Virus record (IMG/VR): IMGVR_UViG_3300011865_000035
Direction: 5' to 3' (one strand)
Origin: a virus
Taxonomy: Duplodnaviria > Heunggongvirae > Uroviricota > Caudoviricetes
Length of the DNA: 64,000 bases
Positions 3,371-55,362 of this stretch are shown here, piece by piece. The stretch's first letter is position 1. Every line of letters starts with the position of its first letter. A model generated the notes under the pieces. That model had not been told where the DNA came from and did no database searches. It worked only from the letters and a program-made list of their open reading frames with translations. Position numbers and translations under genes: made by a program.

Positions 3371-4531
3371 ATGGAAATAAAAATGATAAATTTTGATTTA
3401 ATCAAAAAAATCCCCAAAATATTATCAGAAATTGAAGTTAAAGATAATGAAAAATCTATAGAAATGATAGAAGCATTAGATAACGAGGATTTTTATAAAG
3501 CAATAGAATTACTAAAATGTAATGCTGAACCGAATATTGCCGTGTATGATGGAAGCAGAGAAGAATTTATTACAGTAATACAGGTGTTATTTGATAAGTT
3601 ATATGAATCTGAATCAAAAGTATCATTTTTTAAAGATTATATAGATTTAAATCCTGATGAAGAAGAATTATCTCTCGCGGAAAATAAGCATTTGAAAGCA
3701 CCTTATGAAGAAATTAGTTTATTTATAAAAGAATGGAAAAAATACGGTGGTTCTCTAAATGCTAATCTTATAAAAATTAAAAAACATGAATATAATGAAA
3801 TAAAAGATAACGAAATTAGAACAATGAGTGATTCCATTTTTAATTCATTATTTATTTGTACTGAAAAACAAAACTGGAATAATTATTATAGTTCTGCTTA
3901 TCTTGATGATCTTACCCGAATATTACTTTCATTGTCAGAAATAATGAATGAAAAATTAAAACCAGTGTTTTTGGAGAAACCAGTATTAAGTCTTGTATTA
4001 AAAGAATGTTGGCCGTTTTACACTACATTAGATTTTTTAGAAATTTTAAATCAAGAACATGATGAGTTTTTAATAAATAAAAGAAAAGGTGAAACAGTGT
4101 TACACACTTTAGTTGATTTAAGGAAGGAAAATAATTATTGTTTAGTTAAATATAGTAATCCAGATTATTTTAAATTTATAAATGAAACTATAGAAAATAT
4201 TAATAAAATATATCCTCCTGAATTATTATTAATTAAAAATAAAGAAGGTCTTTTACCTGTAGAATATTTTGCTAAAAAAGAGTCATGGAGCCAATTTATA
4301 ATTATGGATTCTTTAATGAAAAAAAATAATTATAAATATGAATTAACACAAGAAATAATAGATTCATTCCCAGAAGATTTAACCAAATTAGGAATGATTA
4401 GAGAAAATTTAACTGAAGAAAAATTAAAAGAAATGTTTGCTGAAATTTATACGCTCAAAGAGAAATCAGTATTAAATAAAGAAATTAGCGAAGATAAAGA
4501 AGTTAAAATTCAAAAAAACAATAGATTATAA
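3371..4531 (+). CDS. hypothetical protein with C-terminal KNNRL tail
   Basis: A 386-aa ORF with no recognisable domain. It ends ...QKNNRL. Confidence 0.5.
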   Translation: MEIKMINFDLIKKIPKILSEIEVKDNEKSIEMIEALDNEDFYKAIELLKCNAEPNIAVYDGSREEFITVIQVLFDKLYESESKVSFFKDYIDLNPDEEELSLAENKHLKAPYEEISLFIKEWKKYGGSLNANLIKIKKHEYNEIKDNEIRTMSDSIFNSLFICTEKQNWNNYYSSAYLDDLTRILLSLSEIMNEKLKPVFLEKPVLSLVLKECWPFYTTLDFLEILNQEHDEFLINKRKGETVLHTLVDLRKENNYCLVKYSNPDYFKFINETIENINKIYPPELLLIKNKEGLLPVEYFAKKESWSQFIIMDSLMKKNNYKYELTQEIIDSFPEDLTKLGMIRENLTEEKLKEMFAEIYTLKEKSVLNKEISEDKEVKIQKNNRL

Positions 4532-6309: not shown

Positions 6310-7434
6310 TTAAATTAAATCAGAAATACTAATATTAACAACTTCATTAGTTTCCCTATTTAACAATTCAACAATTTTAGTTTCTCTTGTCGTTTTGTTA
6401 ATAATAATCCTTTTATGTATACAAATTAACTCACTGTCATAGAATTTTTTACCAGCTTTGATTTTACGATCATCTAATAAAACTTTTTTACCAGCTTGTT
6501 TTAATTGTTGATATAAACTATCTGCAATATCTTTATCTGTTGCATAATCGATAACAGAGATAATGTAATCAAAAGTGTTGAATTTTGCAGTTCCTTTAAA
6601 TCCTTTTTCATCTCTGTTTTGCTCTAATAATGCCATAATAAGACGAGAAACACCTATGCCAAAACAACCCATTAAAACATGATTCTTTTGATTATCTTTT
6701 AAATCAAAGTTTCTGCTGTAACGATCTCCCAAATTAAAGATATGCCCAATTTCAAGATAATTATCGCCATCTGAACCTTTGTCTTCTCCAAAAGAGCTTT
6801 TACAACGAAATTCTTCTGAAAAGTTTCCACCCATTTCACCCACATCAGACGATACTATTTCAAATTGAATACCTAAACGTGTGAAAATTTTAATATAGGC
6901 AGACCTTACTTCATTATAAGTATTAATTAATTCTTCATCACTATGAGAAAAGCAATAAGCATCAGACATTAAAAATTCTTTTCCTCTGATTAAACCGCCT
7001 TTAGCTCTCATTTCATCACGATATTTATTACCAATTTGATATACTTTTATATCCATGCGAGAATTATTATAGTATTTTTTCATAATTGAAGTGATTGCTT
7101 CTTCACATGTCGCTCCTAAAACAAACTCTCTGTTTTTTCTGTTTTTAAGTTTGAATAATTCTGCTCCATATGAGTCATATCTGTCAGAAGTTTTCCATAA
7201 ATCTGCATCCTGAATTAAACTTAATCTCATTTGAGAAAAACCAATATTATCCAATTCTTCCTGGATAACTTGTTCTACTCTTTTTTCAAGTAAATAGCCT
7301 AATGATAAAGTTGAAAACACACCAGCACTGTCCTGAGTATAGAATCCAGCTTTTTGAACTAAATCAACAAGATCTAATTGAGAGTTTTCTTTTACGAAAG
7401 AATTGCTATTAAAAAACATATTTGAAAATTTCAT
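6310..7434 (-). CDS. proS: prolyl-tRNA synthetase, minimal form lacking INS editing domain
   Basis: Class II motif 2 'YQIGNKYRDEMRAKGGLIRGKEFLMSDAYCF' matches E. coli '[25 protein letters not shown]'. Motif 3 is 'GCFGIGVSRLIMALLEQ'. The anticodon-binding domain is present. At 374 aa the ~180-aa INS insertion is absent. Confidence 0.85.
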   Translation of the reverse strand: MKFSNMFFNSNSFVKENSQLDLVDLVQKAGFYTQDSAGVFSTLSLGYLLEKRVEQVIQEELDNIGFSQMRLSLIQDADLWKTSDRYDSYGAELFKLKNRKNREFVLGATCEEAITSIMKKYYNNSRMDIKVYQIGNKYRDEMRAKGGLIRGKEFLMSDAYCFSHSDEELINTYNEVRSAYIKIFTRLGIQFEIVSSDVGEMGGNFSEEFRCKSSFGEDKGSDGDNYLEIGHIFNLGDRYSRNFDLKDNQKNHVLMGCFGIGVSRLIMALLEQNRDEKGFKGTAKFNTFDYIISVIDYATDKDIADSLYQQLKQAGKKVLLDDRKIKAGKKFYDSELICIHKRIIINKTTRETKIVELLNRETNEVVNISISDLI

Positions 7435-28091: not shown

Positions 28092-28829
28092 ATGATTAAA
28101 GATGTGCAACTTTATAATGATGATTGTTTATGGATAATGGACTCGATTCCAGATAATAGTATTGATTTAATTTTATGTGATTTACCATATGGAACGACTC
28201 AAAATAAATGGGATATAATGCTTCCATTAGACAAATTGTGGAAGCAGTATATGAGAATATCCAAAGGAGCCATTGTTCTTCATGCTGCTCAACCATTCAC
28301 ATCATTATTGGTTTCTTCAAATTTAAAATATTTTAAATATGACTGGATTTGGGAAAAAACAAAAGCAACAGGGCATTTGAATGCAAAAAAACAACCATTA
28401 AGAAACAAAGAAGATATTTTAGTTTTTTATAAAAAACAACCAACTTATAATCCCCAAATGACACAAGGGGAACCATATAAAAATAAAGCAGGAAAAGATC
28501 ATACTAGCCAAAGTTCAATGACAGGATCATATGGAAAATACAGTAATTATAGACCAGATAATGAAGGAACACGATATCCAAAACAAATTCTAAAATTTAA
28601 TGTAGTGCAACGTGGAACTTTACATCCAACTGAAAAACCTGTAGCATTACTGGAATATTTAATAAAAACCTATACTAACCCTGGTGATTTGGTTCTGGAT
28701 AATTGTATGGGTTCTGGAAGTACTGGTGAAGCTGCATTAAGAACAGGTAGAAAATTTATAGGAATAGAAAAAGATAAGGATTTTTTTGATATTGCCAGTA
28801 ATAGAATTTTAAATTTAATAGATCATTAA
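28092..28829 (+). CDS. DNA methyltransferase, beta-class N6-adenine/N4-cytosine (PF01555-like), orphan
   Basis: Motif IV is 'SIDLILCDLPYG' (a DPPY variant). Motif I is C-terminal, 'VLDNCMGSGSTGEAALRTGRKFIGIE'. 'PTEKPVALLEYLI' is also present. The motif IV-before-I order is the beta class. No restriction endonuclease is nearby. Confidence 0.8.
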   Translation: MIKDVQLYNDDCLWIMDSIPDNSIDLILCDLPYGTTQNKWDIMLPLDKLWKQYMRISKGAIVLHAAQPFTSLLVSSNLKYFKYDWIWEKTKATGHLNAKKQPLRNKEDILVFYKKQPTYNPQMTQGEPYKNKAGKDHTSQSSMTGSYGKYSNYRPDNEGTRYPKQILKFNVVQRGTLHPTEKPVALLEYLIKTYTNPGDLVLDNCMGSGSTGEAALRTGRKFIGIEKDKDFFDIASNRILNLIDH

Positions 28830-29476
28830 TGGAAAATAAAATGAAAATAATTTTTGCGGATATTAATAAAAGTTTTATCAATGAAGTGGATGAATTTTTA
28901 CAGTCTAATTTATTAGAAGATATCGAGAATGTGTCCACTTTTTGCGGAAGTTTTGAAAAAGCTGTAAATAATGATAATAACATCAATTGCATGGTTGGTG
29001 CAGGAAATTCATTTGGTTCATTAAGTGGTGGTGTCGATTTAGCAATTAAAAACCATTTTGGTTTTCAACTTCAAGAAAGATTACAAAATAAAATTGATGA
29101 AGATTTTTGTGGAGAATTAAATGTAGGCTCTTCTCTTATAGTAGAGACATTAGATAATAAAATTCAATTATTAGGATATACTCCGACCATGAGAGTCCCA
29201 AAAAGTATAAAGAATACGGATATTCCTTACATGGCAACATGGTCTATGTTAACAACTATTAATAAATTTAATAAAAGTAACCCTAATAAAATAGATAATG
29301 TTATTTTTCCAGGTATGGGAACAGGAACGGGTGAAGTTGATTTTGAAATTGCCGCAAAACAAATGTTATATGCAATAAGTAATTTTAACAAGTTTTTAAA
29401 AGGCAAGAACAAAACAAGAGGATTAAGAAAAGGTTATGTTATTGAAGATAATTTAGGAATACTGGATTTAATCTAA
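28829..29476 (+). CDS. macro-domain (ADP-ribose binding / processing) protein
   Basis: 'NCMVGAGNSFGSLSGGVDLAIKNHFG' matches the macro motif 'NAAN..L.GGGGVDGAIHRAAG'. Its start overlaps the methyltransferase stop (TAATG), or it uses the in-frame ATG at 28841. Confidence 0.7.
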   Translation: MENKMKIIFADINKSFINEVDEFLQSNLLEDIENVSTFCGSFEKAVNNDNNINCMVGAGNSFGSLSGGVDLAIKNHFGFQLQERLQNKIDEDFCGELNVGSSLIVETLDNKIQLLGYTPTMRVPKSIKNTDIPYMATWSMLTTINKFNKSNPNKIDNVIFPGMGTGTGEVDFEIAAKQMLYAISNFNKFLKGKNKTRGLRKGYVIEDNLGILDLI

Positions 29477-29482
29477 AATCAT

Positions 29483-29524
29483 AAATCCGTTCAATGTTTT
29501 TGATAAATTGAACGGATTTTTTAT
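29483..29524. terminator. bidirectional rho-independent terminator
   Basis: aaatccgttcaat-gtttttgataa-attgaacggattt followed by a T-run. Confidence 0.7.
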
Positions 29525-29527
29525 TAA

Positions 29528-30160
29528 TTATTTATGTTTAAAAGTAGAATGTTTTTCGTCAAAAAATTTATAAGGATCTCTTTTTTCTTCTTCTTTTTCA
29601 GCCAACTCTTGTTCTGCTTTATGTCTTGCTTCCATAAGAGATAACTTTCTTTTTATTTCTTTAACACCAGAAATATTATGTTTCTTATTAGATTTTTTAA
29701 TATCAAAATTGTGAGTTTCAATTGTAATTTGTCTGTTAATATCTTTAATTAAGTTTTCATTATCCACATAAGTGGATTTTAAACGATTAATATTTTTTTT
29801 AAATAAATTAAGAAGAAAATCTATTTCCTGAATATTTTTATTATAACCTAATGATTTATCAATTAGTTGATTTTTATGCTTCTCTAATTCATCTATATCT
29901 GCATTATATTTTGGAGATCTTTCTTTTTTGAATTGTGTAATTCTTTCTTCTATTTGTTGAATAGCTTTGATTGTTTCATTATCATGAAATTTTTCTATCA
30001 ACATTAATCCCATTTGTTCTTCATAAAGTTTTTCGTATTTTTTAATATTATCCTGAATATCTTTATTGTTTTTATAAAGAGTTAATTGGATATTTTTAAG
30101 TTTGCTTGTGTCATCCGAAAAAATATTATTAAAAATAGAAGAAAGCTTTTTAAAAAACAT
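29528..30160 (-). CDS. coiled-coil protein, possibly PspA/IM30-like
   Basis: 210 aa, predicted helical throughout, with an amphipathic N-terminus MFFKKLSSIFNNIF. Its similarity to PspA is weak. Confidence 0.4.
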   Translation of the reverse strand: MFFKKLSSIFNNIFSDDTSKLKNIQLTLYKNNKDIQDNIKKYEKLYEEQMGLMLIEKFHDNETIKAIQQIEERITQFKKERSPKYNADIDELEKHKNQLIDKSLGYNKNIQEIDFLLNLFKKNINRLKSTYVDNENLIKDINRQITIETHNFDIKKSNKKHNISGVKEIKRKLSLMEARHKAEQELAEKEEEKRDPYKFFDEKHSTFKHK

Positions 30161-30288
30161 TTTAAAACTCCTGAATTACATAAATAATGCAATTATAACT
30201 ATGAAATATAAATAAAACAAGAAAAAATTTTTGAAAAATAGCTTATCACCAGGTAATCTATTAACAAATTATATATGAGGAAAAATAA

Positions 30289-30939
30289 ATGAATCAGCTT
30301 TCAATTTTTATAGATAAATTAGTCGAATTTCCAACAGTCTTTCCTGCAGTATTAGCAATAACCGCAACAATGTTAATGTTGTTATCTATAATAATATCTA
30401 TAGACCATTTGTTTGCTGATGCATGGCATTTCGATGTAGATCATGATCATAGTATGGAAACAAGTTTTTCTAATAATTTTATTGCATTTTTAGGGCTTAA
30501 AAGACGAATACCACTTGTTCCTTTAATAGCATTAATTACATGGGGAATGACATTAACATGTCTTTTTATCACTTCATTTGTAGATTTATCGTCATCATGG
30601 TGGAGAATAATATTAGGTATATTACTTTTAGTGGTATTGTTGCCCGTATTTTCTAGAATAGCCTATTTATTAATGTTGCCATTAGCTAAATTAATTGAAA
30701 ATAATTCTGGTAAAGAATATACCCTCATTGGTAAATTTGGTTATGTTTCAAGCATAAATCCAAACGAAAGTTATGTGACTATAGAAATAAAAAATGAAGG
30801 AATTGATAGTTCTGTTATCGTATTTGTGGATATATCGGAAATAAACAAGATTGAACCAGGAGATAAAGTTTTAATTGTGAAAAAAGAATTAAATAAAGAA
30901 AATAATTCTTATTATTATCATGGTGGGAAAATAAATTAA
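30289..30939 (+). CDS. NfeD-family membrane protein (YqiJ-like)
   Basis: N-terminal TM helices with a C-terminal OB/beta-barrel, 'GKFGYVSSINPNESYVTIEIKNEGIDSSVIVFVDISEINKIEPGDKVLIVKKE'. It lies directly upstream of a flotillin gene, as in E. coli yqiJK. Confidence 0.65.
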   Translation: MNQLSIFIDKLVEFPTVFPAVLAITATMLMLLSIIISIDHLFADAWHFDVDHDHSMETSFSNNFIAFLGLKRRIPLVPLIALITWGMTLTCLFITSFVDLSSSWWRIILGILLLVVLLPVFSRIAYLLMLPLAKLIENNSGKEYTLIGKFGYVSSINPNESYVTIEIKNEGIDSSVIVFVDISEINKIEPGDKVLIVKKELNKENNSYYYHGGKIN

Positions 30940-31019
30940 ATTATTTTTGCAATGTTAAATTTTTATAGGCTATCATACTTTTGTTAAATAAACTGAAAAA
31001 TGAAATAGGGGTTTGAATT

Positions 31020-32987
31020 ATGGAGAATATGAATTGGTTGTATTTAGGAATTCCAGTGGCACTATTTATAATAGTGGCAATATTTTGTGCAACCAGATAT
31101 GTGTTAGTAAAAGAGACTTCAAGTGTATTAGTTATTAAACGTTTGGGTGGGAAAATAGTTGTAGAAAAAACAGGTGGTTTTGTTTGGCCATTTATCAACT
31201 CTTACACTGTTGTAAGTTTAACTCCAAGAGTAATCACTGTATATTCAGGTAATCCTCAAAATATGATAACAGGAACAGAAGATACTCAAAATGAATACAA
31301 TACTCATCTTCGTATTGGTGATGGTAGTTATTGCAGAAATGATATTAAAGTTGATATAGCTGTTACTTTTAAATTGAGTATTCCATTTGATTCATTAGCA
31401 GAGATCGCAGGTCAATTTGATCCTAATATATTAAATAATATAAAAGAATTAGCTAATTTCTTTGAACCAACATTTGCAGAAGCTTTAAAAAGTGCAACCC
31501 GCCAACATGATTACCTTGATTTAATAAATGATCGTACCGGTTATCGTGAATCAGTTCGTAAGGCTATTGCTAAAGAATTACATAGTTTTAACTTAGCTGA
31601 TGTGTTAATTTCTGAAATTCGTCAAACTCCGGTGGATAAATTAAATCCTAATGATATTCTTGATGCACAAGGTTTAGAGTTGATCACTAAAACAACTACT
31701 GAAAAAAATGTGAATATTAAGAAAATTAAAGAAGAAGGTGACACCCAGTTTACTGAACAAGAAGTAAAAGGAAAACAGGCTCGCTTGCAGTTGAACCTTA
31801 GCTGGAAAGAAGAAGAGTTTAAGACTAATAGTGCTATTGAAGTGACCCGTCTTGAAGAAGAAACAAAAGTTAAAAATAAAGAAGCAGAAGAAAATCTTGA
31901 AAGAGCTAAAATTAAAATTAGAACTGAGCAAGAATCTCGTATAGCAGAACAAAATTCTGAACGTGAAATCCAGACTTCTGAAATAAATAATAAGCAAATG
32001 CTTGGTATTAAAGAACAAGAAAGCTTAAAAGAAGTTAGACTTGCAGAAGTTGAAACAAATAATGAAGTTGCTAAAAAAGATATTGAAAATAGTGTTATCA
32101 TTGCTTCTAAAAATGTTGAACTTCATACTAAAGAAGCAGAAGTGGTTGGTATTAAGAAAGAAATAGAAAAAGAAGAACAAAATACCTTAGATATTAAAGC
32201 ATTTAGCACTGCAGAACGTAATAAGAAAGTTAAATTAACAGAAGCAGAAGCAGAAGCTACGGCTGTACAAATTAAAGAAGTTACTTATGCTGATACAGAA
32301 AAACAAAAAACTGTAATACGTGCTGAAACTCAAGAAATTGATGCTAATGCTAAACTTGTTGTTCTGGAAAAAGAAGTTGTAGGTCGTAAAAAATTAGCCG
32401 AAGTAAGTCAGGACGAAATTGCTGCACAAGGTATTGGTGAAGCTAAAGCGATGAATGCTAAAACAGAAGCCGCAGAAAAATCAGGTGCTGTTGAAGCGAA
32501 AAATATTGAAATTATCGGTAATGCCAAAGCTGAAGCTCAAAAAGCTAACTATGCAGCAATGGAAGTCCCTGAGTCTACAAGAAATCACGAACTTGCTCTT
32601 AAGAAAATGGAAAATGAATTGTCTGTTGAAACTAAGCAAATTGATGCTAATCGTGAAATCGGTGTTGCAGATGCCCAAGCTAGAGGTAAGGCTATGGAAA
32701 ATGCGAAGATTGATATTATAGGAGATGCTGGAACTCTTGAAGCATTAACAAGAAGTCGCACTACTGGTTTATCTCTTGATCGTAAGATTCGTGGTAGTGA
32801 TTTGTTGAGTAAAGTAGCAGAACCTTATTTAAGTGGTGAAAAAGATTTACCTGCTGATATGGCAAACATATTAAAAGAAATCACTGCTGACGGTTCCGAT
32901 ATAATGAACTTAACAATAGCACAAGCAATGACGAATCCAAAATTTAGTGGATTGATAAATAAAATGTTATTTGGTAGTAAAGAATAA
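31020..32987 (+). CDS. flotillin-like SPFH/band-7 protein (YqiK/FloT-like)
   Basis: N-terminal TM then the SPFH core 'RYVLVKETSSVLVIKRLGGKIVVEKTGGFVWPFINSYTVVSLTPRVITV', followed by a long E/A/K-rich coiled coil. 655 aa. Confidence 0.8.
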   Translation: MENMNWLYLGIPVALFIIVAIFCATRYVLVKETSSVLVIKRLGGKIVVEKTGGFVWPFINSYTVVSLTPRVITVYSGNPQNMITGTEDTQNEYNTHLRIGDGSYCRNDIKVDIAVTFKLSIPFDSLAEIAGQFDPNILNNIKELANFFEPTFAEALKSATRQHDYLDLINDRTGYRESVRKAIAKELHSFNLADVLISEIRQTPVDKLNPNDILDAQGLELITKTTTEKNVNIKKIKEEGDTQFTEQEVKGKQARLQLNLSWKEEEFKTNSAIEVTRLEEETKVKNKEAEENLERAKIKIRTEQESRIAEQNSEREIQTSEINNKQMLGIKEQESLKEVRLAEVETNNEVAKKDIENSVIIASKNVELHTKEAEVVGIKKEIEKEEQNTLDIKAFSTAERNKKVKLTEAEAEATAVQIKEVTYADTEKQKTVIRAETQEIDANAKLVVLEKEVVGRKKLAEVSQDEIAAQGIGEAKAMNAKTEAAEKSGAVEAKNIEIIGNAKAEAQKANYAAMEVPESTRNHELALKKMENELSVETKQIDANREIGVADAQARGKAMENAKIDIIGDAGTLEALTRSRTTGLSLDRKIRGSDLLSKVAEPYLSGEKDLPADMANILKEITADGSDIMNLTIAQAMTNPKFSGLINKMLFGSKE

Positions 32988-33009
32988 TATTAAATATGAA
33001 TAAATAAGT

Positions 33010-33038
33010 AAAAAGCCACTTGATAGTGGCTTTTTTTA
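33010..33038 (+). terminator. rho-independent terminator
   Basis: aaaaagccact-tgat-agtggcttttttt. Confidence 0.7.
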
Positions 33039-33117
33039 TAAATTATTTTTGTAATTTATATGATTTTTAAGGTAATATAGTTTGATATTTAAAATATGAA
33101 AAAAGGATTAAGATATA

Positions 33118-36100
33118 ATGCAAAATGAAAATTTAGCTCAACAAGAAAAAAATTCATTAGCTTTAATTCAGAAAAGAATGGAAGGTAATAATAGAACATT
33201 ACAAGAAATTTCTGCAAGTTTAAATAAAGAAAGGAATGAAGCATTTAAAAAAATAGATTTAACTCTTGTAACAACTCTTTCTTTAAAAAGTAATGTGAAT
33301 GCAATTCCTATTGATATTGTTAATATTAATGGTTATATTCTTGCTGGTTATAAAACAGAAAAAACAGTTGTTCAAAAAACCGAACTTTCTGATATATTTT
33401 CATATGCAAAAATTGAGAATGATGATATAGATAATTTTTCAGTTAAAGAACAAAATCCTTTTGATTCCATTTTATTTGAAGAAAAATTTAAAACAGAATT
33501 TGCTCATCTTTTTAGATATTATAAATCTGCTGAATTTTATCAGTTTATAAAAACGACAAGTAGCCTATTAATTGTTTTTAAGATTGGTGCAGATTTAGAA
33601 AATATCAAAGCATATCGTTGGGATATTGATCGTAATAGTAATTATAAATATGTTGGAGAAGTCCAAGGTTCAACACTTATACCAAATATACAAAAAGAAT
33701 TAGTTAAATTCGAAGAAGCAATGATTAGTTCTAATAAAAAAAATGGTATAGAAATATCTTCTGAATTATTCCTTAATAACTATAAAGGAAAAGCAACATT
33801 TACACATACTAAAAATGGTATTATTTTTGAAGAAGATTTAACACAAAAACTTCAATCAATCGAAGACAGCAAACTATTAAAAGTAAAAATGGGCAATTTA
33901 ATTCTAATAAAATTTATGCCTTATAATGAATTGCCACGCTTTTATATCTTTGATGAAGTGAGTCGCAAAATAATAAAAACTGAAAATTTTGAATATTCTT
34001 TACAGGAATTACCAGAAAATAATGGTATTATTTTTGCGAATGGTTTTTATTTAAATGATGGTCAATATAAACAGTTTAGTTTTGATCTTGATGCTAATAA
34101 ACATGAAAATTATAAATCACCAAATGGAGAAGATTATCTTTTTGTTTTTTATAGCAGAAGAAATAATAATTACATTATTTACAATTATAATCTTGTTTCA
34201 AAAGAAATGACTCCTCCTGTTATAGCCAAAGGTGTTACATTATTAGATAATGGTGGATTAATAGTACTGAAAGAGTCCGAAGAATTAAGTACAGTTCATT
34301 ATATTCAAATATGGAGAAGCCCTTATTTTTCGGATAATTACTATAACGAATTACTGAAAAATACTAAAGAAACCCGAATATCTAAAATTGGCAATAATGA
34401 AATTGTAAAAGCAATTGGTTCTATAAACTCTATTATTAATTTTATAGCTAATAAAGAGATAAGTGTGTCTGTTTATAATACGATTATAAATATGATAGAA
34501 ACAACAGTGGATACTTATCATTGGCTAAATGAATTTAATGATATTAAAGTTGTGCCTACCTTACATGAAGTTAAAGATACAGCACAGCAAGTTATTAATG
34601 AATATCAAAAAGTTGAAGAACTAAAAGCATTTGCTAAAAATAAAATAACAAAAGCTAAAGAAAATTTTGAAGAAATAAACAGAGTATCCAGGACTAAAAC
34701 AAATGAATTGAATCATATGTTAGATGTTCTGGTAAATATTAAAGCTTTCATTGGTCAAACTTTCATTTTAAAAGAAGACCGTTATATTGATGCTGCTATT
34801 ATTGATAGTCTATTAGAAACTGCTGAAAAAAGACGAATTGAAATAAATAATATTATTATAGAACTTTTAGATAAACCAGAAACATATTCTGCATTAACCA
34901 CAGCAATAAAAGAAATCGGTCAGGATATTGATACTGAAAATTCGTATAAAAATATAAAAGAATTAAATATTAAGATAAATCATATTACTAAAAATCTAAG
35001 CATTTTGAATCAAGAAATAAACTCTTTAGATTTTGAAGATAATTCTTTATTGGCTGAGATATTAGAAAAAATAGCTTCAGTGTTTGCTATTGTAAATCAG
35101 GTAAAATCTCGTGGTAAGCAAAAAGAACAGGATTTAGCTTTTGAAGAGGCAAAAATAGAATTTGCTTCTCATTCTAAATTACTTGAACAAACTTTAAAAA
35201 ATTCATTAAATAATGCTGAAACTCTTGAAAAAACTGAAGAGGAATATGCAAAAGTTTTAGCCTTATTACAAGAACAAGAAGCTAGATTTTCTGAATTTAA
35301 TACCGATGAATTTACATTAACAATTTCGAAACAAAGAGAAGATATACTGTCTGCTTTTGGTAGTCATAAGCAGAAATTAAGAGCAGAATTACAAAAGAAA
35401 ACAGAAAATTTAGTTAATGCTATTAAAGTTAGTTTACGTAGTATTCAAAACAAAGCTGGACAAGCTGAAACTGTTAATGACGTATCCAGTATATTCTTGA
35501 CAGATGGTATTGTTTTAAGAGCTAAAAAATTAATATCTCAGGTTCGTGAATTGGGAGATGTTTCCCAATCAGAAGATTTGGATGCTCAACTTCGTAAAAT
35601 AGAAAAAGATGCAATCAAGAAAGTTAGAGATGATTTAGATATTTTTGAAAATGGTGGTTCTGTTTTAAAATTAGGCTCATACCGTTTTGCTGTAAATAAA
35701 AGACCTTTTGAAGTTGTTTTAATTAAACGAGAAGGAAAAGTTTATACACATATTGAAACCACTGATTATTATAAAGAAATAGATTTATCTACAATAAACG
35801 AACATTTATATAAATACTGGAATTATGATTTTATTTCAGAAAGTAATAATTTATATCGTGCGGAGTATTTAGTTTATTCAATATTAGATGATATTAAAAA
35901 TAAAAGAAATGATTTAAATCCTGAACTTATTAATGACATTTTTAAGAAAGGCATCCGTTTCACTAAAAATTATAGTTTATTAAATTTAGTTCAGGATTAT
36001 TCAAGTAAATTATATAAAGAAGGTTATATAAAAGGTATTCATGATAATGACGCCGCTGCTATTTTAAAAGCGATTCTTGAACAACAAGAAAAAGCCCATG

Positions 36101-37992
36101 AGTTACAATATAATTCAACAGATCGTTTAACTGCATGGATTTTAAGAGCCAGAATAACATTAACTGAACAAAAACATGATGATAAGATAGAAAAAGATAT
36201 TGATAAAGGATTAAAGTTATTAGCAAAAATTAATACTCCTTTGTTGTTAAATTCAGCCATAAAGGAATTAAAAGATGAATTGCAAACGGAAAGAGATTTT
36301 AGTCTGGATTCTTTAGATTATCTTGTTAATTATACTAAAAAAGAAGATGTAAAAACTTCAATACAGGTAAAAGATTTTTATGATACAATGTTTAAAGAAT
36401 TAAATGAATTTATTCTGGATTTTAAAGAATCTTTTGAAGAAAAAGAGAATTTTGAAGATAAGATGTCAATAATAAAAGATTTTGGTTTATTTATTGAAGC
36501 GTATTGTAATCATCATAATTTAACAAAATCATTAATTAATGAAGTTGTAATTTATTTCATTCGTAAAGAAATACTGGAAACAGAAATAAACGCTGAAAAA
36601 ATAGAATATTTAATTGAAATAAATAATCTTTATGGGGAACATCCAAATATAAAAAATGCAACTCTTATTTTTACAACCGAAGATTTTAATATGAGAAATA
36701 AATATCATCGTGAACATATTATCCCGGCTTATGCTGGTGTCGATGAATTTAAAAAGAAAACTTTAGACAAAGAAAAAGAATTTATAAATATAAATAGCTT
36801 TAAATCAAAACCTTTAACTTCTTTTGTGAAAAATAAACTAATATCAGAATCTTATTTTCCTAAATTTGGAGCCAACCTTGCAAAACAAATAGGTGAAACC
36901 GGAGAAAGCAGAAAATCTGATACTATGGGTATGTTATTACTGACATCTCCTCCTGGTTATGGGAAGACTACTCTAGTAGAATATGTGGTAAATAAATTAG
37001 GTATGGTATTTGTTAAAATAAATTGTCCATCAATTGGTCATAATGTAACTTCACTTGATCCAAATGATGCCCCTGATTTAACAGCCAGAAAAGAAATTGA
37101 AAAAATAAATCTTTCGTTTGAAATGGGTAATAATGTTTGTCTATATTTAGATGATATTCAACATACAAATCCAGAATTTTTACAAAAATTTATTCCTCTT
37201 TGTGACGGAACAAGAACCGTTGAAGGAGTATGGGAAGGTAAATCCAAAACTTATAATTTAAGAAATAAGCGGTTTGCGGTTATCATGGCAGGGAACCCTT
37301 ATACGGAAAGTGGAGAAAGTTTTAAAATTCCTGATATGTTAGCAAACCGAGCAGATACTTATAATCTGGGAGATATTTCCAGTGATGACAGAACTGTGTT
37401 TGAAATGAGTTATATAGAAAATGCTATTGTTAGTAATCCTACAACAGAACCATTAACTAATCGTAGTATGAAAGATATTTATTTATTCTTAAAAATGGTA
37501 GACGGTCTGGAAGTAAACAGAGAAGATTTTGATTATGAATATAGTGGAATAGAAATTGACGAAATTATCAAAGTATTAAAAATGATGAAAAAAGTTCAAA
37601 GTGTTGTTTTAAAAGTTAATGAACAATATATTTATTCAGCTTCACAAAATAATGAATATAGAAATGAACCGCCTTTTAAATTACAAGGTTCTTATCGTAA
37701 TATGTCTAAAATAGTAGAAAAAATACTACCATTAATGACAGAAAAAGAAATTGATAATTTAATAATGGATCACTATCAAGCAGAATCTCAAACATTAACA
37801 AAAAGTAATGAAGAAAATTTACTTAAGTTTAAAGAAATATTTAATATAATGACTGAGAAAGAAAAAGAAAGATGGATCGAATTGAAAAACACATTTAAGA
37901 AATTAAATGGAAGCAATGATAAAGTTATATTGCAGGAAATAAGTGATAGCTTAAATAATATTGCAGAGACAATGAAAAATAATAATAAATAA
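33118..37992 (+). CDS. giant (1624 aa) coiled-coil protein with C-terminal MoxR/AAA_5-type AAA+ ATPase domain
   Basis: Walker A 'LLLTSPPGYGKTTLVEY', Walker B 'VCLYLDDIQHT' and sensor region 'VIMAGNPYTESGESFKIPDMLANRADTYNLGD' are all AAA_5-like. The N-terminal ~1250 aa have no recognisable domain and include long coiled coils. It has no basic C-terminal tail (ends NNNK). Confidence 0.7.
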   Translation: MQNENLAQQEKNSLALIQKRMEGNNRTLQEISASLNKERNEAFKKIDLTLVTTLSLKSNVNAIPIDIVNINGYILAGYKTEKTVVQKTELSDIFSYAKIENDDIDNFSVKEQNPFDSILFEEKFKTEFAHLFRYYKSAEFYQFIKTTSSLLIVFKIGADLENIKAYRWDIDRNSNYKYVGEVQGSTLIPNIQKELVKFEEAMISSNKKNGIEISSELFLNNYKGKATFTHTKNGIIFEEDLTQKLQSIEDSKLLKVKMGNLILIKFMPYNELPRFYIFDEVSRKIIKTENFEYSLQELPENNGIIFANGFYLNDGQYKQFSFDLDANKHENYKSPNGEDYLFVFYSRRNNNYIIYNYNLVSKEMTPPVIAKGVTLLDNGGLIVLKESEELSTVHYIQIWRSPYFSDNYYNELLKNTKETRISKIGNNEIVKAIGSINSIINFIANKEISVSVYNTIINMIETTVDTYHWLNEFNDIKVVPTLHEVKDTAQQVINEYQKVEELKAFAKNKITKAKENFEEINRVSRTKTNELNHMLDVLVNIKAFIGQTFILKEDRYIDAAIIDSLLETAEKRRIEINNIIIELLDKPETYSALTTAIKEIGQDIDTENSYKNIKELNIKINHITKNLSILNQEINSLDFEDNSLLAEILEKIASVFAIVNQVKSRGKQKEQDLAFEEAKIEFASHSKLLEQTLKNSLNNAETLEKTEEEYAKVLALLQEQEARFSEFNTDEFTLTISKQREDILSAFGSHKQKLRAELQKKTENLVNAIKVSLRSIQNKAGQAETVNDVSSIFLTDGIVLRAKKLISQVRELGDVSQSEDLDAQLRKIEKDAIKKVRDDLDIFENGGSVLKLGSYRFAVNKRPFEVVLIKREGKVYTHIETTDYYKEIDLSTINEHLYKYWNYDFISESNNLYRAEYLVYSILDDIKNKRNDLNPELINDIFKKGIRFTKNYSLLNLVQDYSSKLYKEGYIKGIHDNDAAAILKAILEQQEKAHELQYNSTDRLTAWILRARITLTEQKHDDKIEKDIDKGLKLLAKINTPLLLNSAIKELKDELQTERDFSLDSLDYLVNYTKKEDVKTSIQVKDFYDTMFKELNEFILDFKESFEEKENFEDKMSIIKDFGLFIEAYCNHHNLTKSLINEVVIYFIRKEILETEINAEKIEYLIEINNLYGEHPNIKNATLIFTTEDFNMRNKYHREHIIPAYAGVDEFKKKTLDKEKEFININSFKSKPLTSFVKNKLISESYFPKFGANLAKQIGETGESRKSDTMGMLLLTSPPGYGKTTLVEYVVNKLGMVFVKINCPSIGHNVTSLDPNDAPDLTARKEIEKINLSFEMGNNVCLYLDDIQHTNPEFLQKFIPLCDGTRTVEGVWEGKSKTYNLRNKRFAVIMAGNPYTESGESFKIPDMLANRADTYNLGDISSDDRTVFEMSYIENAIVSNPTTEPLTNRSMKDIYLFLKMVDGLEVNREDFDYEYSGIEIDEIIKVLKMMKKVQSVVLKVNEQYIYSASQNNEYRNEPPFKLQGSYRNMSKIVEKILPLMTEKEIDNLIMDHYQAESQTLTKSNEENLLKFKEIFNIMTEKEKERWIELKNTFKKLNGSNDKVILQEISDSLNNIAETMKNNNK

Positions 37993-38089: not shown

Positions 38090-39175
38090 ATGTCAGAAAT
38101 AGATTTGCAAAATTTATCCAAGGAAGAACTTATTCAATTAATAAAAGATAAAGAAATTGATTATTTAAATCAAAAAGAAATTGAATTTATAGATGCAGCA
38201 TTAGAAGTACCGGATATAAATCTTGAAAAACTAAAAGAAAGTATTAATGATTTTTCGTTAGATTTATCTTCTCTTGAAAATGAAGAAATAGATAATTCAA
38301 GCGAAATTAAAGATGCTGAAAGAGATATTGAAAAACAAGTAGAAGATATTTCTGAAAATTTTTCTAATGTTGTCTATGAAATAGCGAATCAATTTTATAA
38401 TTCAGTAGAAAAGATAACTGAATTTAAGAAAGAAAATTATCCCGATTTTAGACAATTTATAAGTTGGGAAAGTTTTTTCCAGGATTATTCATTATCTATG
38501 ACCAGTTATATAAGAACTTTACTTGAGTTGGTTCATGAAGATAATAAACATGATTTTTATCAACATGTAATGTATGATAGATATTTGTTAAATAAAGATG
38601 AGTTGGTTTCTTTTTTATTAGGTGATAGTGAAAATATAAAAAATTTTATTGATTTAATCATTAATGACGAAAATTTGGATTCAAAAACCAAAAATTATGG
38701 TTTACTTAAAGCATGTCAAAAACATTATGCACGTGCAGAAATGAATTTAAATGTATTGAATTTATTATTTGAAAAGACAGACATAAAAGAAGAACATATA
38801 ACCCAAGATATGATATTAAATACATTTAACACTAAATTAAATGAAATAACCAGAAACAAAACTAATAATTATCAGTTAGTAGTTGATCAAGCTTTTGAAC
38901 CATTGTTGAAAAAAGGATTATATAAAGAATTTTTCAATTCCACTAATGATAATAAAAATGAGTTTAAAGAAATTTTTAAAGAACCTAATACTCAAAAAGT
39001 TATTCATATGCAACATTATAAAAATAAAGCAGCAGCAGGAGCTTTAATTTTTAAAGATTTTATAGAAATAGCAGGGAATAATAAAGAATTACAAAGTATT
39101 TTAGAAAAAATGTTATTAATTGATGCATTAAATGAAAATTCAAAAAATGAACCAACAGCGAAAAGAAGATTATAA
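38090..39175 (+). CDS. hypothetical protein, C-terminal KRRL
   Basis: 361 aa. Confidence 0.5.
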   Translation: MSEIDLQNLSKEELIQLIKDKEIDYLNQKEIEFIDAALEVPDINLEKLKESINDFSLDLSSLENEEIDNSSEIKDAERDIEKQVEDISENFSNVVYEIANQFYNSVEKITEFKKENYPDFRQFISWESFFQDYSLSMTSYIRTLLELVHEDNKHDFYQHVMYDRYLLNKDELVSFLLGDSENIKNFIDLIINDENLDSKTKNYGLLKACQKHYARAEMNLNVLNLLFEKTDIKEEHITQDMILNTFNTKLNEITRNKTNNYQLVVDQAFEPLLKKGLYKEFFNSTNDNKNEFKEIFKEPNTQKVIHMQHYKNKAAAGALIFKDFIEIAGNNKELQSILEKMLLIDALNENSKNEPTAKRRL

Positions 39176-47300: not shown

Positions 47301-49040
47301 ATGTCAACAATAAAAGCTGAACTTAAATTTGATGGTAAAGACACTTATTTTAATCGTTTCTTAAAAAGAAGCTCAGATGAAAATATTATTAATTATATAA
47401 ATAATGCCACAAAAGAAAACATTAATATTTTTTTAGAATATGACGATGAGAACGATTATTTATGTATGTATCCTTTATATTTTAACTTTATTATAAACTG
47501 TATTAAAAAAGATAAGAAAGATATTTTAATTGCAATCGAAAATAATGGCTTTAATGCTTTTTCAATTTCAAACCAAGAACAAAATAATGAAAATTTCTAT
47601 ACCTATTTGCTTAAAAGAAAAATGCAGCCAGCTATTTTAAAGATGTCGCCAGTGTTCAATAATTATTTAATTACACATTTAAAAAATAAATTAACATCGG
47701 AAAATGTAGATGATATAGTATCTTTAATTAAAAAGACTGAAAGAGAATTGAAATTCGCTGGAAAAAAGACCTCCGATAATTTCTTGCATTTATTAAATGA
47801 AAAAGAGTTTTATAACATACCTAAAATAAAAGAAAGAATAGTCTTTAATTCAACTTTAATTAATAATTTTTCTGCTGAAGAAATTAAACTAATATTAGAT
47901 AAAAATAATTTACATGATAATGAAAAAGTAAGAAGGAATTTGTTGAACTATTTTACGCATCATAATTTTATAAATATTGAAGAATCAGTCAATATTTTAT
48001 TTAAAAACCAGCAGGATTTTTTAGACAAAATAATTACTCCTTATTTTGCAGAAGTTTCTTATAATTTAGCTGATTATATAGTCCGTCTACCAACAGGTCA
48101 AGGATTACACATAGATAATAAAAACACAGAGCCATCGTTATTAATTAAAGCACTAAGTTTATATGCAGATAAAAATTATGTAAATTTAAAAAATTTAGGA
48201 GTGAATATAAATGAGAAAGATTTATTCCATCCTTTATTTGAATATAATAATGATATAAGTGCTATTTTTTATTCTGATAATTTGGAAAAACAAGCTGATT
48301 TGAAATATAAATTTATTCAAAATTTAATCAAGGATGTTGAGAATTTAAAATATAAAGATATGTTAAAAATTGAAAAAATAATGAATAGCACTAATTTTAT
48401 GATGTTTAATGAAAAACATTTTAGTGTTTTAACTAAATTGTTAATAAAGAAAAGAGAACAAATAAAAAAAATAAGTTTTGCTGATGTTAATAATAGAAAT
48501 GAATTATATCATGCAGGAGAATGTGTAAGACTTATATTTATTGGTTTATATAATCAATTAAAAGATAAAGGTTTTGTCGATAAAGTATTAACAGAAAATA
48601 ATAGTATACCTCATGTTTTTGCTAATTATATTGGTTTTATGGAATTTCATCGTGATTTATTGGAAAAGTCAAAAAATGAATATTTTGCAACAATAGAAAA
48701 TAGTAGTTTTTTTGGTCCTTTATATAAAAAAAATATAGCCAATATATTTAATTTTGAACTATATAAAAACAATGATTTGAATATATTACGGTTAACTATT
48801 TTTCCAAGATATAATGAAGTATTATCATGGGAAAATAATGAAAACACTTATTTTAGTGCCGGAAGTGAAAATAAGTTTTTAAAATTTATTATAGATAACA
48901 AATATGAAGAAATATTAATTGATTATATGGGAAAAGAAAATCAAAATAGAAATCAAAATGCTGTTGAAGTAGAAAAAAGATTATTACTCATACATATGAG
49001 TAATAATAAATTAGAACCTGTAAGTAAAAAAAGGTTGTGA
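47301..49040 (+). CDS. hypothetical protein, C-terminal KKRL
   Basis: 579 aa. Confidence 0.5.
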   Translation: MSTIKAELKFDGKDTYFNRFLKRSSDENIINYINNATKENINIFLEYDDENDYLCMYPLYFNFIINCIKKDKKDILIAIENNGFNAFSISNQEQNNENFYTYLLKRKMQPAILKMSPVFNNYLITHLKNKLTSENVDDIVSLIKKTERELKFAGKKTSDNFLHLLNEKEFYNIPKIKERIVFNSTLINNFSAEEIKLILDKNNLHDNEKVRRNLLNYFTHHNFINIEESVNILFKNQQDFLDKIITPYFAEVSYNLADYIVRLPTGQGLHIDNKNTEPSLLIKALSLYADKNYVNLKNLGVNINEKDLFHPLFEYNNDISAIFYSDNLEKQADLKYKFIQNLIKDVENLKYKDMLKIEKIMNSTNFMMFNEKHFSVLTKLLIKKREQIKKISFADVNNRNELYHAGECVRLIFIGLYNQLKDKGFVDKVLTENNSIPHVFANYIGFMEFHRDLLEKSKNEYFATIENSSFFGPLYKKNIANIFNFELYKNNDLNILRLTIFPRYNEVLSWENNENTYFSAGSENKFLKFIIDNKYEEILIDYMGKENQNRNQNAVEVEKRLLLIHMSNNKLEPVSKKRL

Positions 49041-53001: not shown

Positions 53002-53571
53002 ATGAAATTATTTAAAATAAGATCTAATACAAAAGACTATGCAAGTTTTTTACAAAAAAATTATACAACTTACTACGAAAGCATAAAATACAAAGCATTA
53101 CATGAACAAAAATGGCAACCATTTGATATTGAAAAATATATAATTCCAGAGTTCGAAATATTGACAAGTGATACAGGGAAAAGAAATTTCCAATTTGATT
53201 TTTCTTCTCACCCTTCACCATTTTATATTTTTAGTGAAAATGCAGTTGAAGCTTTAAAAGACATACTTGAACCAAGGGGGAAATTTCTACCTATAAAGAC
53301 TCCAAGTAAAAGAAAAAAATTTATTGGTTATTATCCCACTAATGCAATTAAGGGATTGGTTGATTTGGAAAAATCAGGTATTTATGATTTAAGTTTAAAT
53401 TTTGAGACTGATAATTTAAAATTTAGAGAAAACATTGCAATTGATGAATATATGTTTTGTATTTCAGAAAGTAGAAATTGTATTCTTTTTACTGAAAAAT
53501 TCAAAGAAAGAGTTGAAGAAACAAAACTAAACAGTTTTTCTTTTTTATCTGTAGATGTGGATTTTGTTTAA
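53002..53571 (+). CDS. paralog A of tandem 190-aa family (immunity-protein-like)
   Basis: The shared core is 'KA(L/M)HEQKW(Q/K)PF...PEFE...SDTGK(R/K)NFQ(F/H)D...SPF(Y/F)(I/V)FSENA(V/I)EALKDILEPRG(K/Q)FLPI(K/I)TPSKRKKFIGYYPTN'. There is no signal peptide. Confidence 0.55.
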   Translation: MKLFKIRSNTKDYASFLQKNYTTYYESIKYKALHEQKWQPFDIEKYIIPEFEILTSDTGKRNFQFDFSSHPSPFYIFSENAVEALKDILEPRGKFLPIKTPSKRKKFIGYYPTNAIKGLVDLEKSGIYDLSLNFETDNLKFRENIAIDEYMFCISESRNCILFTEKFKERVEETKLNSFSFLSVDVDFV

Positions 53572-53584
53572 AGAGAAATAAACA

Positions 53585-54178
53585 ATGAGAAAAGTAATGC
53601 TATATACAATACAAGGAAATACAAAAGATTATTCGGATTTTTTGGAAATAAATTATTGTAATGTGGAAAAGTGCATTCAAGTAAAAGCAATGCACGAACA
53701 AAATTGGAAACCTTTTGATATGGAAAAGTTTGTAATTCCAGAATTCGAATTGGCTAGGAGTGATACAGGTAAAAAAAATTTCCAGCATGATATTTCTACT
53801 CATGAAAGTCCATTTTATATCTTTAGCAAAAATGCAGTTGAAGCTTTAAAAGATATACTCGAACCACGAGGACAATTCTTACCTATAAAAACTCCAAGTA
53901 AAAGAAAAAAATTTATAGGTTATTATCCAACAAATCCATTAATTAATGCAATAGATATAGAAAAATCTGGAATGAAAGATTATAACTACAAAGTATTAGG
54001 TATAAAAAAAGAGAGTCTTCATTTTAAGAAAGGGATAGTATTAGATGAATATCTTTTCAGTTTATCAGAAGACAGGCGTTATGTTTTTGTTACTGAAAAA
54101 TTCAGACAACGTGTGGAAGAAGCTGAATTAAAAGGATTTGATTTTGAAGGTAGAGACTTTATAGTTACGGTGGATTAA
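53585..54178 (+). CDS. paralog B of tandem family
   Basis: About 85% identical to 54769..55362. Confidence 0.55.
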   Translation: MRKVMLYTIQGNTKDYSDFLEINYCNVEKCIQVKAMHEQNWKPFDMEKFVIPEFELARSDTGKKNFQHDISTHESPFYIFSKNAVEALKDILEPRGQFLPIKTPSKRKKFIGYYPTNPLINAIDIEKSGMKDYNYKVLGIKKESLHFKKGIVLDEYLFSLSEDRRYVFVTEKFRQRVEEAELKGFDFEGRDFIVTVD

Positions 54179-54760
54179 ATGAAAATAAAATTATTCGAAT
54201 TAGAAAGTAATAGTGGGAATTATTCTAGTTTTTTGCAAACCAACTGGAATAAATATTATGAAACCATACAATATAAAGCCATGCATGAACAAAAATGGAA
54301 ACCCTTTAATTTAGATACTTATATTACTCCAGAGTTTGAAGTAGAAAGTAGTGATACAGGAAAAAAAAACTTTCAACATGATATATCTTCAAATGCTAGT
54401 CCTTTTTTTGTTTTCAGTGAAAATGCAATTGAAGCTTTAAAAGATATACTTGAACCTAGAGGACAATTTTTACCAATAATAACTCCAAGTAAAAGAAAAA
54501 AATTTATTGGTTATTATCCAACTAATGTTATTAATGGATTAGTTGATTTACAAAAATCAGGTAATGATGATTTAGATAGACCATTTACAACAAAAAATTT
54601 ATTCTTTAAAAAAGAAGTTGTATTTGATGATTATCTTTTTTGTATTGGCGAAAGTAGAGGTTGTGTATTAATTACTGAAAAATTTAAAAAGAGAGTTGAA
54701 GATGCTGGTTTAAAAGGTTTTGATTTTGTTTATTCTAAAATTACTGCAAAAATAGAATGA
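54179..54760 (+). CDS. paralog A' of tandem family
   Basis: Closest to 53002..53571. Its start abuts the upstream stop. Confidence 0.55.
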   Translation: MKIKLFELESNSGNYSSFLQTNWNKYYETIQYKAMHEQKWKPFNLDTYITPEFEVESSDTGKKNFQHDISSNASPFFVFSENAIEALKDILEPRGQFLPIITPSKRKKFIGYYPTNVINGLVDLQKSGNDDLDRPFTTKNLFFKKEVVFDDYLFCIGESRGCVLITEKFKKRVEDAGLKGFDFVYSKITAKIE

Positions 54761-54768
54761 AATAAATA

Positions 54769-55362
54769 ATGAAAAAAGTAAAACTATATAGAATAGAAGC
54801 AAATACAAAAGATTATTCTGGTTTTCTGGAAATTAATTATGGTAACGTAAAAAAAAGTATACAAGTAAAAGCTATGCATGAACAAAATTGGAAGCCTTTT
54901 AATTTTAATAGATATGTTGTACCTGAATTTGAACTTATAAGTAGCGATACAGGAAAAAAGAACTTTCAGCATGATATTTCTACTGATGTAAGCCCATTTT
55001 ATATATTTAGTGAATATGCAGTTGAAGCTTTACAAGATATTCTTGAACCAAGAGGACAATTTTTACTGATAAAGACTCCGAGCAAAAGAAAAAAATTCAT
55101 AGGTTATTATCCAACAAACCCATTAATTAATGCAGTTGATATAGAAAAATCAGGTATGAAAAATTATGACTATAAGACTATGGGCATAAAAAGGGATGAT
55201 ATTCACTTTAAAAAAGGAACAATTTTAGATGACTATCTTTTTAGTTTATCAGAAGACAGGCGTTATGTTTTTATTACTGAAAAATTCAGGCAACGTGTAG
55301 AAGAAGCTGGATTAAAAGGGTTTGATTTTGAAGGTAGAGACTTTATAGTTACGGTGGATTAG
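54769..55362 (+). CDS. paralog B' of tandem family
   Basis: About 85% identical to 53585..54178, including the identical C-terminus 'GFDFEGRDFIVTVD'. Confidence 0.55.
   Translation: MKKVKLYRIEANTKDYSGFLEINYGNVKKSIQVKAMHEQNWKPFNFNRYVVPEFELISSDTGKKNFQHDISTDVSPFYIFSEYAVEALQDILEPRGQFLLIKTPSKRKKFIGYYPTNPLINAVDIEKSGMKNYDYKTMGIKRDDIHFKKGTILDDYLFSLSEDRRYVFITEKFRQRVEEAGLKGFDFEGRDFIVTVD

Follow-up and report, generated by a model that had tools for sequence, protein, structure and literature searches.

In the six-clade classification of macro domains, the yeast protein YMR087W is the only studied member of the Macro2 type; it turns ADP-ribose-1''-phosphate into ADP-ribose and is reported to have no de-MARylating activity, whereas DarG belongs to the ALC1/TARG1-type clade (PMC6397177). 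ADP-ribosylated DNA can be acted on by stand-alone or orphan macro proteins, among them AdfM (PhiPA3 gp108, PhiKZ gp104), a DarG2-like phage protein directed against DarT2 (PMC13309987). Among DNA methyltransferases, phages carry orphan beta-class N6-adenine enzymes (PF01555; phrog_67) of about 240–250 aa, which are circularly permuted, with motif IV first and motif I last, and which stand alone without a nuclease. Here we describe a locus of an uncultured bacterium where relatives of both groups are direct neighbours. The window, i.e., the whole 64,000-nucleotide stretch of the IMG/VR record IMGVR_UViG_3300011865_000035 that was analysed, has a guanine-plus-cytosine (GC) content of 24% and is rich in ORFans. 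It contains the following two genes:

28092..28829, + strand: orphan beta-class DNA methyltransferase, 245 aa, assigned by PF01555, PADLOC, phrog_67 and sequence motifs (the methylase)
28841..29476, + strand: stand-alone Macro2-type (YMR087W-like) macro domain protein, 211 aa, or 215 aa if counted from 28829, assigned by PF14519, PF01661, Foldseek and the ligand-binding loops (the macro protein)

Distribution of the gene pair and origin of the methylase

The methylase and the macro protein are, in our assessment, probably the products of two ordinary genes that became adjacent by an accident of insertion, and not the components of a two-component system. We collected 246 loci of macro homologues from outside the species, including 80 from GTDB genomes, 80 from metagenome contigs, 80 from IMG/VR contigs and six from Logan/ENA contigs, as well as 85 loci of methylase homologues from genomes, metagenomes and viral contigs, 80 of them from IMG/VR. 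Each locus was searched by tblastn with both window proteins (E ≤ 1e-3, within 5–8 kb of the locus). None of the 246 sampled macro loci possesses a methylase and none of the 85 sampled methylase loci possesses a macro gene, and a hidden Markov model of the methylase family found nothing further in the 166 macro loci gathered before the IMG/VR scans. The same picture is seen among the closest relatives: of the macro homologues whose contigs are long enough, the three closest (58%, 56% and 51% identity) lack an adjoining methylase, and the three closest methylase homologues (77–78%) have no adjoining macro gene.

When 127 genes directly adjoining macro homologues were assigned to Pfam families, the 25 most frequent of the 125 matched families included no DNA methyltransferase or ADP-ribosyltransferase. 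The cellular neighbours are lineage-specific housekeeping genes (FemAB and others), and the neighbours in prophages are tail-fibre and tail-fibre-assembly genes. A scan of GTDB with the macro alignment gave no match above 45% identity among the best 80 loci of at least 600 stretches, and a literature search found no methylase–macro system. An earlier note on this DNA had proposed that the two genes form a cassette with an epigenetic or anti-defence role, or a pair for the reversal of DNA modification; this proposal is not borne out by the loci sampled or by the collinear relative described below, and the neighbourhood search in other genomes leaves the pair confined to this species.

The relative L013 (27% GC), whose macro protein is 58% identical to that of the window, is collinear with the window. 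Its gene order consists of homologues of the window genes w19975 and w23572, the two-transmembrane (2-TM) genes, the macro gene and a homologue of w38090, with no methylase and with 118 nt in its place. Five more low-GC relatives (L008, L009 and L099–L101) have the macro gene near homologues of w39187, w40196, w44294 or w23572, likewise with no methylase. Because L013 and these five relatives keep the macro gene in a related neighbourhood without a methylase, the macro gene is a resident of the clade.

A different history is suggested for the methylase. Its nearest homologues outside the species are 77–78% identical, and two of them lie in phage-like contigs of 34% and 43% GC that are full of small open reading frames (ORFs) with T4-type Pfam matches. 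The family is very large, and most of its members are orphan enzymes of phages. Homologues of the methylase are present in 1,559 phage records, the best being that of Vibrio phage jenny 12G5 (64%), where the gene stands alone among early genes. The identity of 77–78% to proteins of phage-like contigs, as compared with 27–58% for resident proteins between relatives of the same clade, argues for a horizontal origin, and its acquisition from a phage-type source is the simplest reading of these comparisons.

According to this scenario, a phage-type orphan methylase would have landed between the tandem 2-TM array and the resident macro gene, and the shared transcript, the tight spacing and the single terminator described below would be consequences of the landing site. 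The methylase would presumably methylate the cell's own DNA at a short motif and, as an orphan, may either protect this DNA from foreign restriction enzymes or act as an epigenetic mark, while the resident macro protein would be a cytosolic Macro2-type enzyme related to YMR087W. As it stands, the locus contributes a further orphan phage-type methylase and a further uncharacterised Macro2-type enzyme, and matters little beyond that.

Several observations weigh against an accidental adjacency. The census is a sample, to which each collection scan contributed its best 80 loci of at least 600 stretches. Two deletions in the L013 lineage would explain its gene order equally well as two insertions in the window lineage. 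The GC content at third codon positions (GC3) of the methylase is 0.163 and that of its neighbours 0.12–0.20, giving no compositional sign of a recent transfer. Moreover, the methylase–macro order is kept in every conspecific contig seen, namely L001–L007 and the more diverged strain L344; in all of them, the genes are arranged as 2-TM array, methylase, macro gene, a convergent 210-aa gene, a 216-aa gene and the flotillin gene. The junction has been kept even though the methylase block of L344 has diverged to a synonymous divergence (dS) of ~0.6; it is thus an old junction that the species has retained stably, as a functional link between the genes would likewise predict. The GC3 equal to that of the neighbours and the preserved junction of the diverged L344 block mean that the proposed transfer of the methylase was not recent.

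A second segment of the window, the block 29528–37992, is also missing from L013 (L013:3913–4020), where the macro gene is directly followed by the w38090 homologue. The block encodes the convergent 210-aa coiled-coil ORF, a 216-aa membrane protein, a 655-aa Band_7/flotillin protein and a 1624-aa DUF3686/DUF7902/AAA protein, with no PADLOC match in the block. Since this block, like the methylase, is absent from L013, the macro gene is flanked on both sides by lineage-specific DNA.

The macro protein and the methylase

The presence of a stand-alone macro domain downstream of the methylase, recognized in the earlier note, was confirmed by profile searches and modelling. The ORF 28829–29476 (215 aa) matches PF14519 (Macro_2) as its top family (E = 1.4e-12, 47.9 bits against a cut-off of 27) and PF01661 (Macro) also above cut-off (E = 1.9e-10), as well as phrog_2613 (7.8e-50). 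In a phmmer search of the PDB, the sole match was 1njr, the structure of yeast YMR087W (E = 1.1e-05). An AlphaFold2 model built on an 11-sequence alignment (mean pLDDT 82.9) consists of a single macro fold with one low-confidence terminal helix, and Foldseek likewise ranks 1njr first among the PDB structures for it (E = 1.2e-11, query-normalised TM score 0.67, alignment of 206 columns). The residues invariant in the 11 macro homologues (N60, S61, G63, G67, G68, D70, P161, G166 and G168 in the 215-aa numbering) make up the ADP-ribose-binding loops N60-S61-x-G63, G67-G68-x-D70, P161 and G166-x-G168. These align with the loops of YMR087W, the two proteins having in common the patterns GNS(F/Y)G..GG(V/F)D and PG..TG.G.

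YMR087W is therefore the nearest described relative by sequence, fold, loops and Pfam family. The differences are that the identity is only 24%, that the window protein is bacterial and about 70 residues shorter, and that no tRNA-splicing context is seen for it. By analogy with YMR087W, the macro protein most likely binds an ADP-ribose derivative and would hydrolyse ADP-ribose-1''-phosphate or a similar small ester of ADP-ribose, with ADP-ribose as the product. Proteins of the Macro2 type have a wide distribution in Chloroflexota, Cyanobacteria and prophages, and any biochemical data on the family would be new.

The analogy with DarTG drawn in the earlier note does not hold. The macro fold is common to DarG, AdfM and the window protein, and DarG (5m3i) is the second-best Foldseek match (2e-6 over 138 columns, 17% identity), five orders of magnitude behind 1njr. 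Unlike DarG, the window protein is of the Macro2 type and, with just one domain in its 211 aa, lacks the C-terminal domain that binds DarT. No PADLOC model, including that of DarG, matches it at E ≤ 0.01. The macro gene is bordered by the methylase and by a convergent ORFan, so that no DarT (DUF4433) gene is adjacent, and none is seen in the window, where 25 of the 29 Pfam families matched by 60 window ORFs were listed and no ADP-ribosyltransferase family was among them. Membership in the AdfM group was considered and rejected, as the PhiPA3 homologue of the window protein is gp271, whereas AdfM of this phage is gp108 (PMC13309987).

These results bear on an alternative in which the macro protein has nothing to do with the methylase and is an orphan guard, clearing the ADP-ribose adducts that toxins, host enzymes or phages attach, in the manner of AdfM or DarG, in place of a housekeeping role in the turnover of ADP-ribose-1''-phosphate. 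Such a role would fit the intact ADP-ribose-binding loops, the second rank of DarG among the fold matches and the common occurrence of the family as prophage and jumbo-phage cargo (Gifsy-1, SEN4/5, PhiPA3 gp271, 278 IMG/VR matches and phrog_2613). We nonetheless consider it unlikely, given that YMR087W is by far the better match in both E-value and aligned length, that the DarG model of PADLOC finds nothing, that the cellular macro homologues have no recurrent partner and that the Macro2 type is reported to lack de-MARylating activity (PMC6397177).

Two observations on the macro family stand apart from these questions. In enterobacterial prophages, a macro homologue of ~43% identity is located between the side tail fibre and the tail-fibre assembly genes (Gifsy-1, NC_010392.1 5354–6178). 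Among the 127 sampled neighbours of macro homologues there are 22 Caudo_TAP and 11 tail Collar proteins, 24 of 72 sampled loci are viral, and in some records the macro homologues themselves are annotated as a tail protein (phrog_14717). Furthermore, the 211-aa protein HCJ8469682.1 (P0147), which falls into the same 90% cluster as the window macro protein and lies on contigs up to 83.7 kb, was deposited as 'TPA: macro domain-containing protein [Escherichia coli]'. It most likely comes from a contaminant contig of this 24% GC sequence in an E. coli assembly, and may hint that the organism and E. coli shared a sample.

The prediction of a PF01555-type methyltransferase in ORF 28092–28829 proved right: the 245-aa protein matches PF01555 (N6_N4_Mtase) with E = 1.9e-30 and 106.9 bits against a cut-off of 26.7, its residues 24–235 covering profile positions 1–219 of 221, i.e., the full length. 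Its best PADLOC model is MTase_II (PDLC03251, 2.1e-79), and it matches phrog_67 'DNA methyltransferase' with 8.6e-76. The motif order is permuted, with motif IV (DLPYG, residues 30–34) first and motif I (DNCMGSGSTG, residues 203–212) last. In an alignment of the window methylase with 13 relatives, the residues D30, L31, P32, Y33, G34, D203, N204, G207 and G209 are invariant across all 14 family members. The textbook form of motif IV is DPPY, whereas the window methylase has DLPY, yet this variant is invariant in its subfamily. An aspartate at the first position of motif IV favours N6-adenine over N4-cytosine. With a motif IV of D-L-P-Y, the methylase is therefore probably N6-adenine specific, as judged from sequence.

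Among proteins of solved structure, the methylase is related to CcrM (6pbd), the H. pylori DpnA-type enzyme (5hek), M.MboIIA (1g60) and M.RsrI. These align with it mainly over the C-terminal S-adenosylmethionine-binding region, so that its target specificity is not inferable from them. The enzyme resembles the phage-borne orphan group in its size, its permuted motif order and its solitary position, and is 57–64% identical to annotated phage methylases such as the 'DNA methylase' of Vibrio phage jenny 12G5 and the 'adenine-specific methyltransferase' of Salmonella phage S102. The difference is in the surroundings: those of the window methylase are of a bacterial-chromosome type, and the Pfam census of the 64 kb showed no phage genes.

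The orphan state of the methylase is supported locally, within the 64-kb window, in agreement with the earlier note, which had seen no restriction partner nearby. No restriction-endonuclease family is found among the listed Pfam families of the window ORFs, and PADLOC had no match in the eight flanking proteins. Type II nucleases are often unrecognisable by profile, which is where a second alternative finds its place: the methylase could be one half of a Type II restriction-modification system whose nuclease is an unrecognisable ORFan nearby or is encoded elsewhere in the genome. The best PADLOC model being MTase_II speaks for it, as do the frequent divergence of Type II nucleases beyond the reach of Pfam and the fact that ORFans make up most of the window ORFs. 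The immediate candidates are poor ones, being a 2-TM array member, the macro protein and the convergent 210-aa ORF, which is Lys/Glu-rich and has no Pfam, PADLOC or PHROG match. Moreover, the close homologues of the methylase in phages and phage-like contigs stand alone, and the listed Pfam families include no nuclease. Overall, we regard this second alternative as somewhat less probable even than an independent guard function of the macro protein.

The junction, the transcription unit and strain variation

Three further features define the ends of the two genes and of their transcription unit:

28038..28091, + strand: spacer of 54 nt between the last gene of the 2-TM array and the methylase, with a Shine-Dalgarno (SD)-like AGG at −12 of the methylase ATG, described from the sequence, a census of SD elements and a terminator scan
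28830..28840, + strand: spacer of 11 nt that separates the stop codon of the methylase from the probable start of the macro gene, with an SD-like GGA at 28831–28833, described from the sequence, the alignment and the SD census
29483..29525, + strand: hairpin resembling an intrinsic terminator, with an 11-nt loop on a 13-bp stem and a U-run after it, found by RNA folding

The string TAATG at 28827–28831, in which the methylase stop codon and the first ATG of the macro ORF (28829) share one base, is present as the earlier note had described, but the translational coupling that was read from this 1-nt overlap is not borne out. All ten macro homologues from outside the species that were compared (10/10) begin at the residue matching the second ATG, at 28841, and M5 is invariant in the 11-sequence alignment. 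This ATG is preceded by GGA at −10, the usual SD position in the window, where most genes have an SD-like GGA, AGG or GAG 9–12 nt before the start codon, whereas no SD-like element is found within 25 nt upstream of the ATG at 28829. The latter is thus probably not used and the real macro start is probably at 28841, in which case a real gap of ~11 nt lies between the genes and provides the macro gene with a ribosome-binding site of its own. Six conspecific contigs share exactly the same sequence at the junction, and the gene callers are nonetheless split between a 215-aa and a 211-aa product; the single NCBI record of the macro protein has the 211-aa form.

The methylase and the macro gene are probably co-transcribed, possibly together with the 2-TM array, as the terminator scan detected none in the spacer 28038..28091 and read-through from the array is therefore possible. 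The strong hairpin at 29483–29525 (−15.5 kcal/mol, z-score −4.25, with none of 200 shuffles equally stable) marks the end of the series of co-directional genes, opposite the convergent gene 29528–30160 (− strand); the pattern-based terminator scan overlooked it owing to its long loop. A scan for sigma-70 promoters yielded no more sites than chance would give (63, with 61.6 expected from shuffled sequences), and no Rfam family matched the window at gathering thresholds.

The compact arrangement invites a third alternative, a genuine two-gene module of this lineage, either as an anti-defence or modification-reversal cassette, in which the macro enzyme would undo the ADP-ribosylation of DNA or protein and the methylase would mark self DNA, or with one enzyme regulating the other. 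The genes are tightly spaced, co-oriented and followed by one terminator, their order persists in strains of the species that have diverged, phages often carry members of both families, and phage macro proteins can be anti-defence factors, as is AdfM against DarT2 (PMC13309987). In an AT-rich genome, a TAATG junction and tight spacing are weak evidence for a functional pair. Against a module stand the lack of co-occurrence in the 246 and 85 related loci, the collinear L013 without a methylase, the Macro2 type of the macro protein in place of a DarG2/AdfM type, the reported absence of de-MARylating activity in the only characterised Macro2 relative (PMC6397177), and the literature search, which found no such system. 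We therefore hold a module of this kind to be highly improbable. Least probable of all is a lineage-restricted module in which the captured phage methylase and the Macro2 enzyme have been co-opted into one operon with a joint role, which, if true, might mark self DNA while clearing ADP-ribose adducts or signals in phage or host conflict and would have no described counterpart.

Both genes are maintained by purifying selection, as indicated by the ratios of nonsynonymous to synonymous substitution (dN/dS) against strain L344, which are 0.03 in the case of the methylase and 0.08 in that of the macro gene. An orphan methylase that is under such strong purifying selection while its genome is small and rich in ORFans could serve an epigenetic function.

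The comparison with L344 also revealed a mosaic within 26300–31500. The array, the methylase and the first ~230–280 nt of the macro gene are about 88–94% identical to L344, and everything downstream is 97–100% identical, a pattern indicative of homologous recombination between strains. The idea that the breakpoint coincides with the gene junction was rejected, since the step at which identity rises from ~90% to ~99% falls within the macro gene, around 29055–29119, and not at the methylase/macro boundary. For the same reason, the step says nothing on modularity.

Other features of the window

The locus lies between the upstream 2-TM array (24206–28037) and the flotillin cluster, whose Band_7/flotillin gene occupies 31020–32987, as had been noted earlier. 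The copy number of the array genes varies between strains: contig L004 has nine members, as against eight in the window, where the place of the extra gene is taken by a gap of 207 nt (25511–25717; compare L004:7145–8052).

A basic C-terminal tail of the form K/R-x-R-L (KKRL, KNRL, KRRL etc.) is carried by 24 of the 62 window ORFs, and three more ORFs end in RI and one in RF. The carriers include the genes of the 2-TM array (24206–28037) and the genes 3371–4531, 8853–10448, 38090–39175 and 47301–49040, and an alignment of 60 unrelated window proteins has 'KxRL' as its consensus C-terminus. The tail is absent from housekeeping-type proteins, namely a prolyl-tRNA synthetase (ProRS), a GluRS-like protein, the methylase, the macro protein and the flotillin; its absence from the methylase and the macro protein had been pointed out before. 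The tail looks like a C-terminal sorting or secretion signal of an unrecognised kind.

Two of these housekeeping-type proteins are reduced in size. The 374-aa ProRS (6310–7434, − strand) matches bacterial ProRS models at both ends only, the middle region being missing, and the 297-aa protein of 22566–23459 (+ strand) consists of the catalytic domain of GluRS/GluQRS only. Relatives of the ProRS with 75–82% identity are found on contigs of ~1.3 Mb, suggesting a clade of small genomes. Finally, four tandem paralogous ORFs of 189–197 aa are located at 53002–55362, two of which end identically in RDFIVTVD. Three window proteins, probably encoded by these genes, match the polymorphic-toxin immunity family Imm11 of Pfam, with a best E-value of 2.9e-06.

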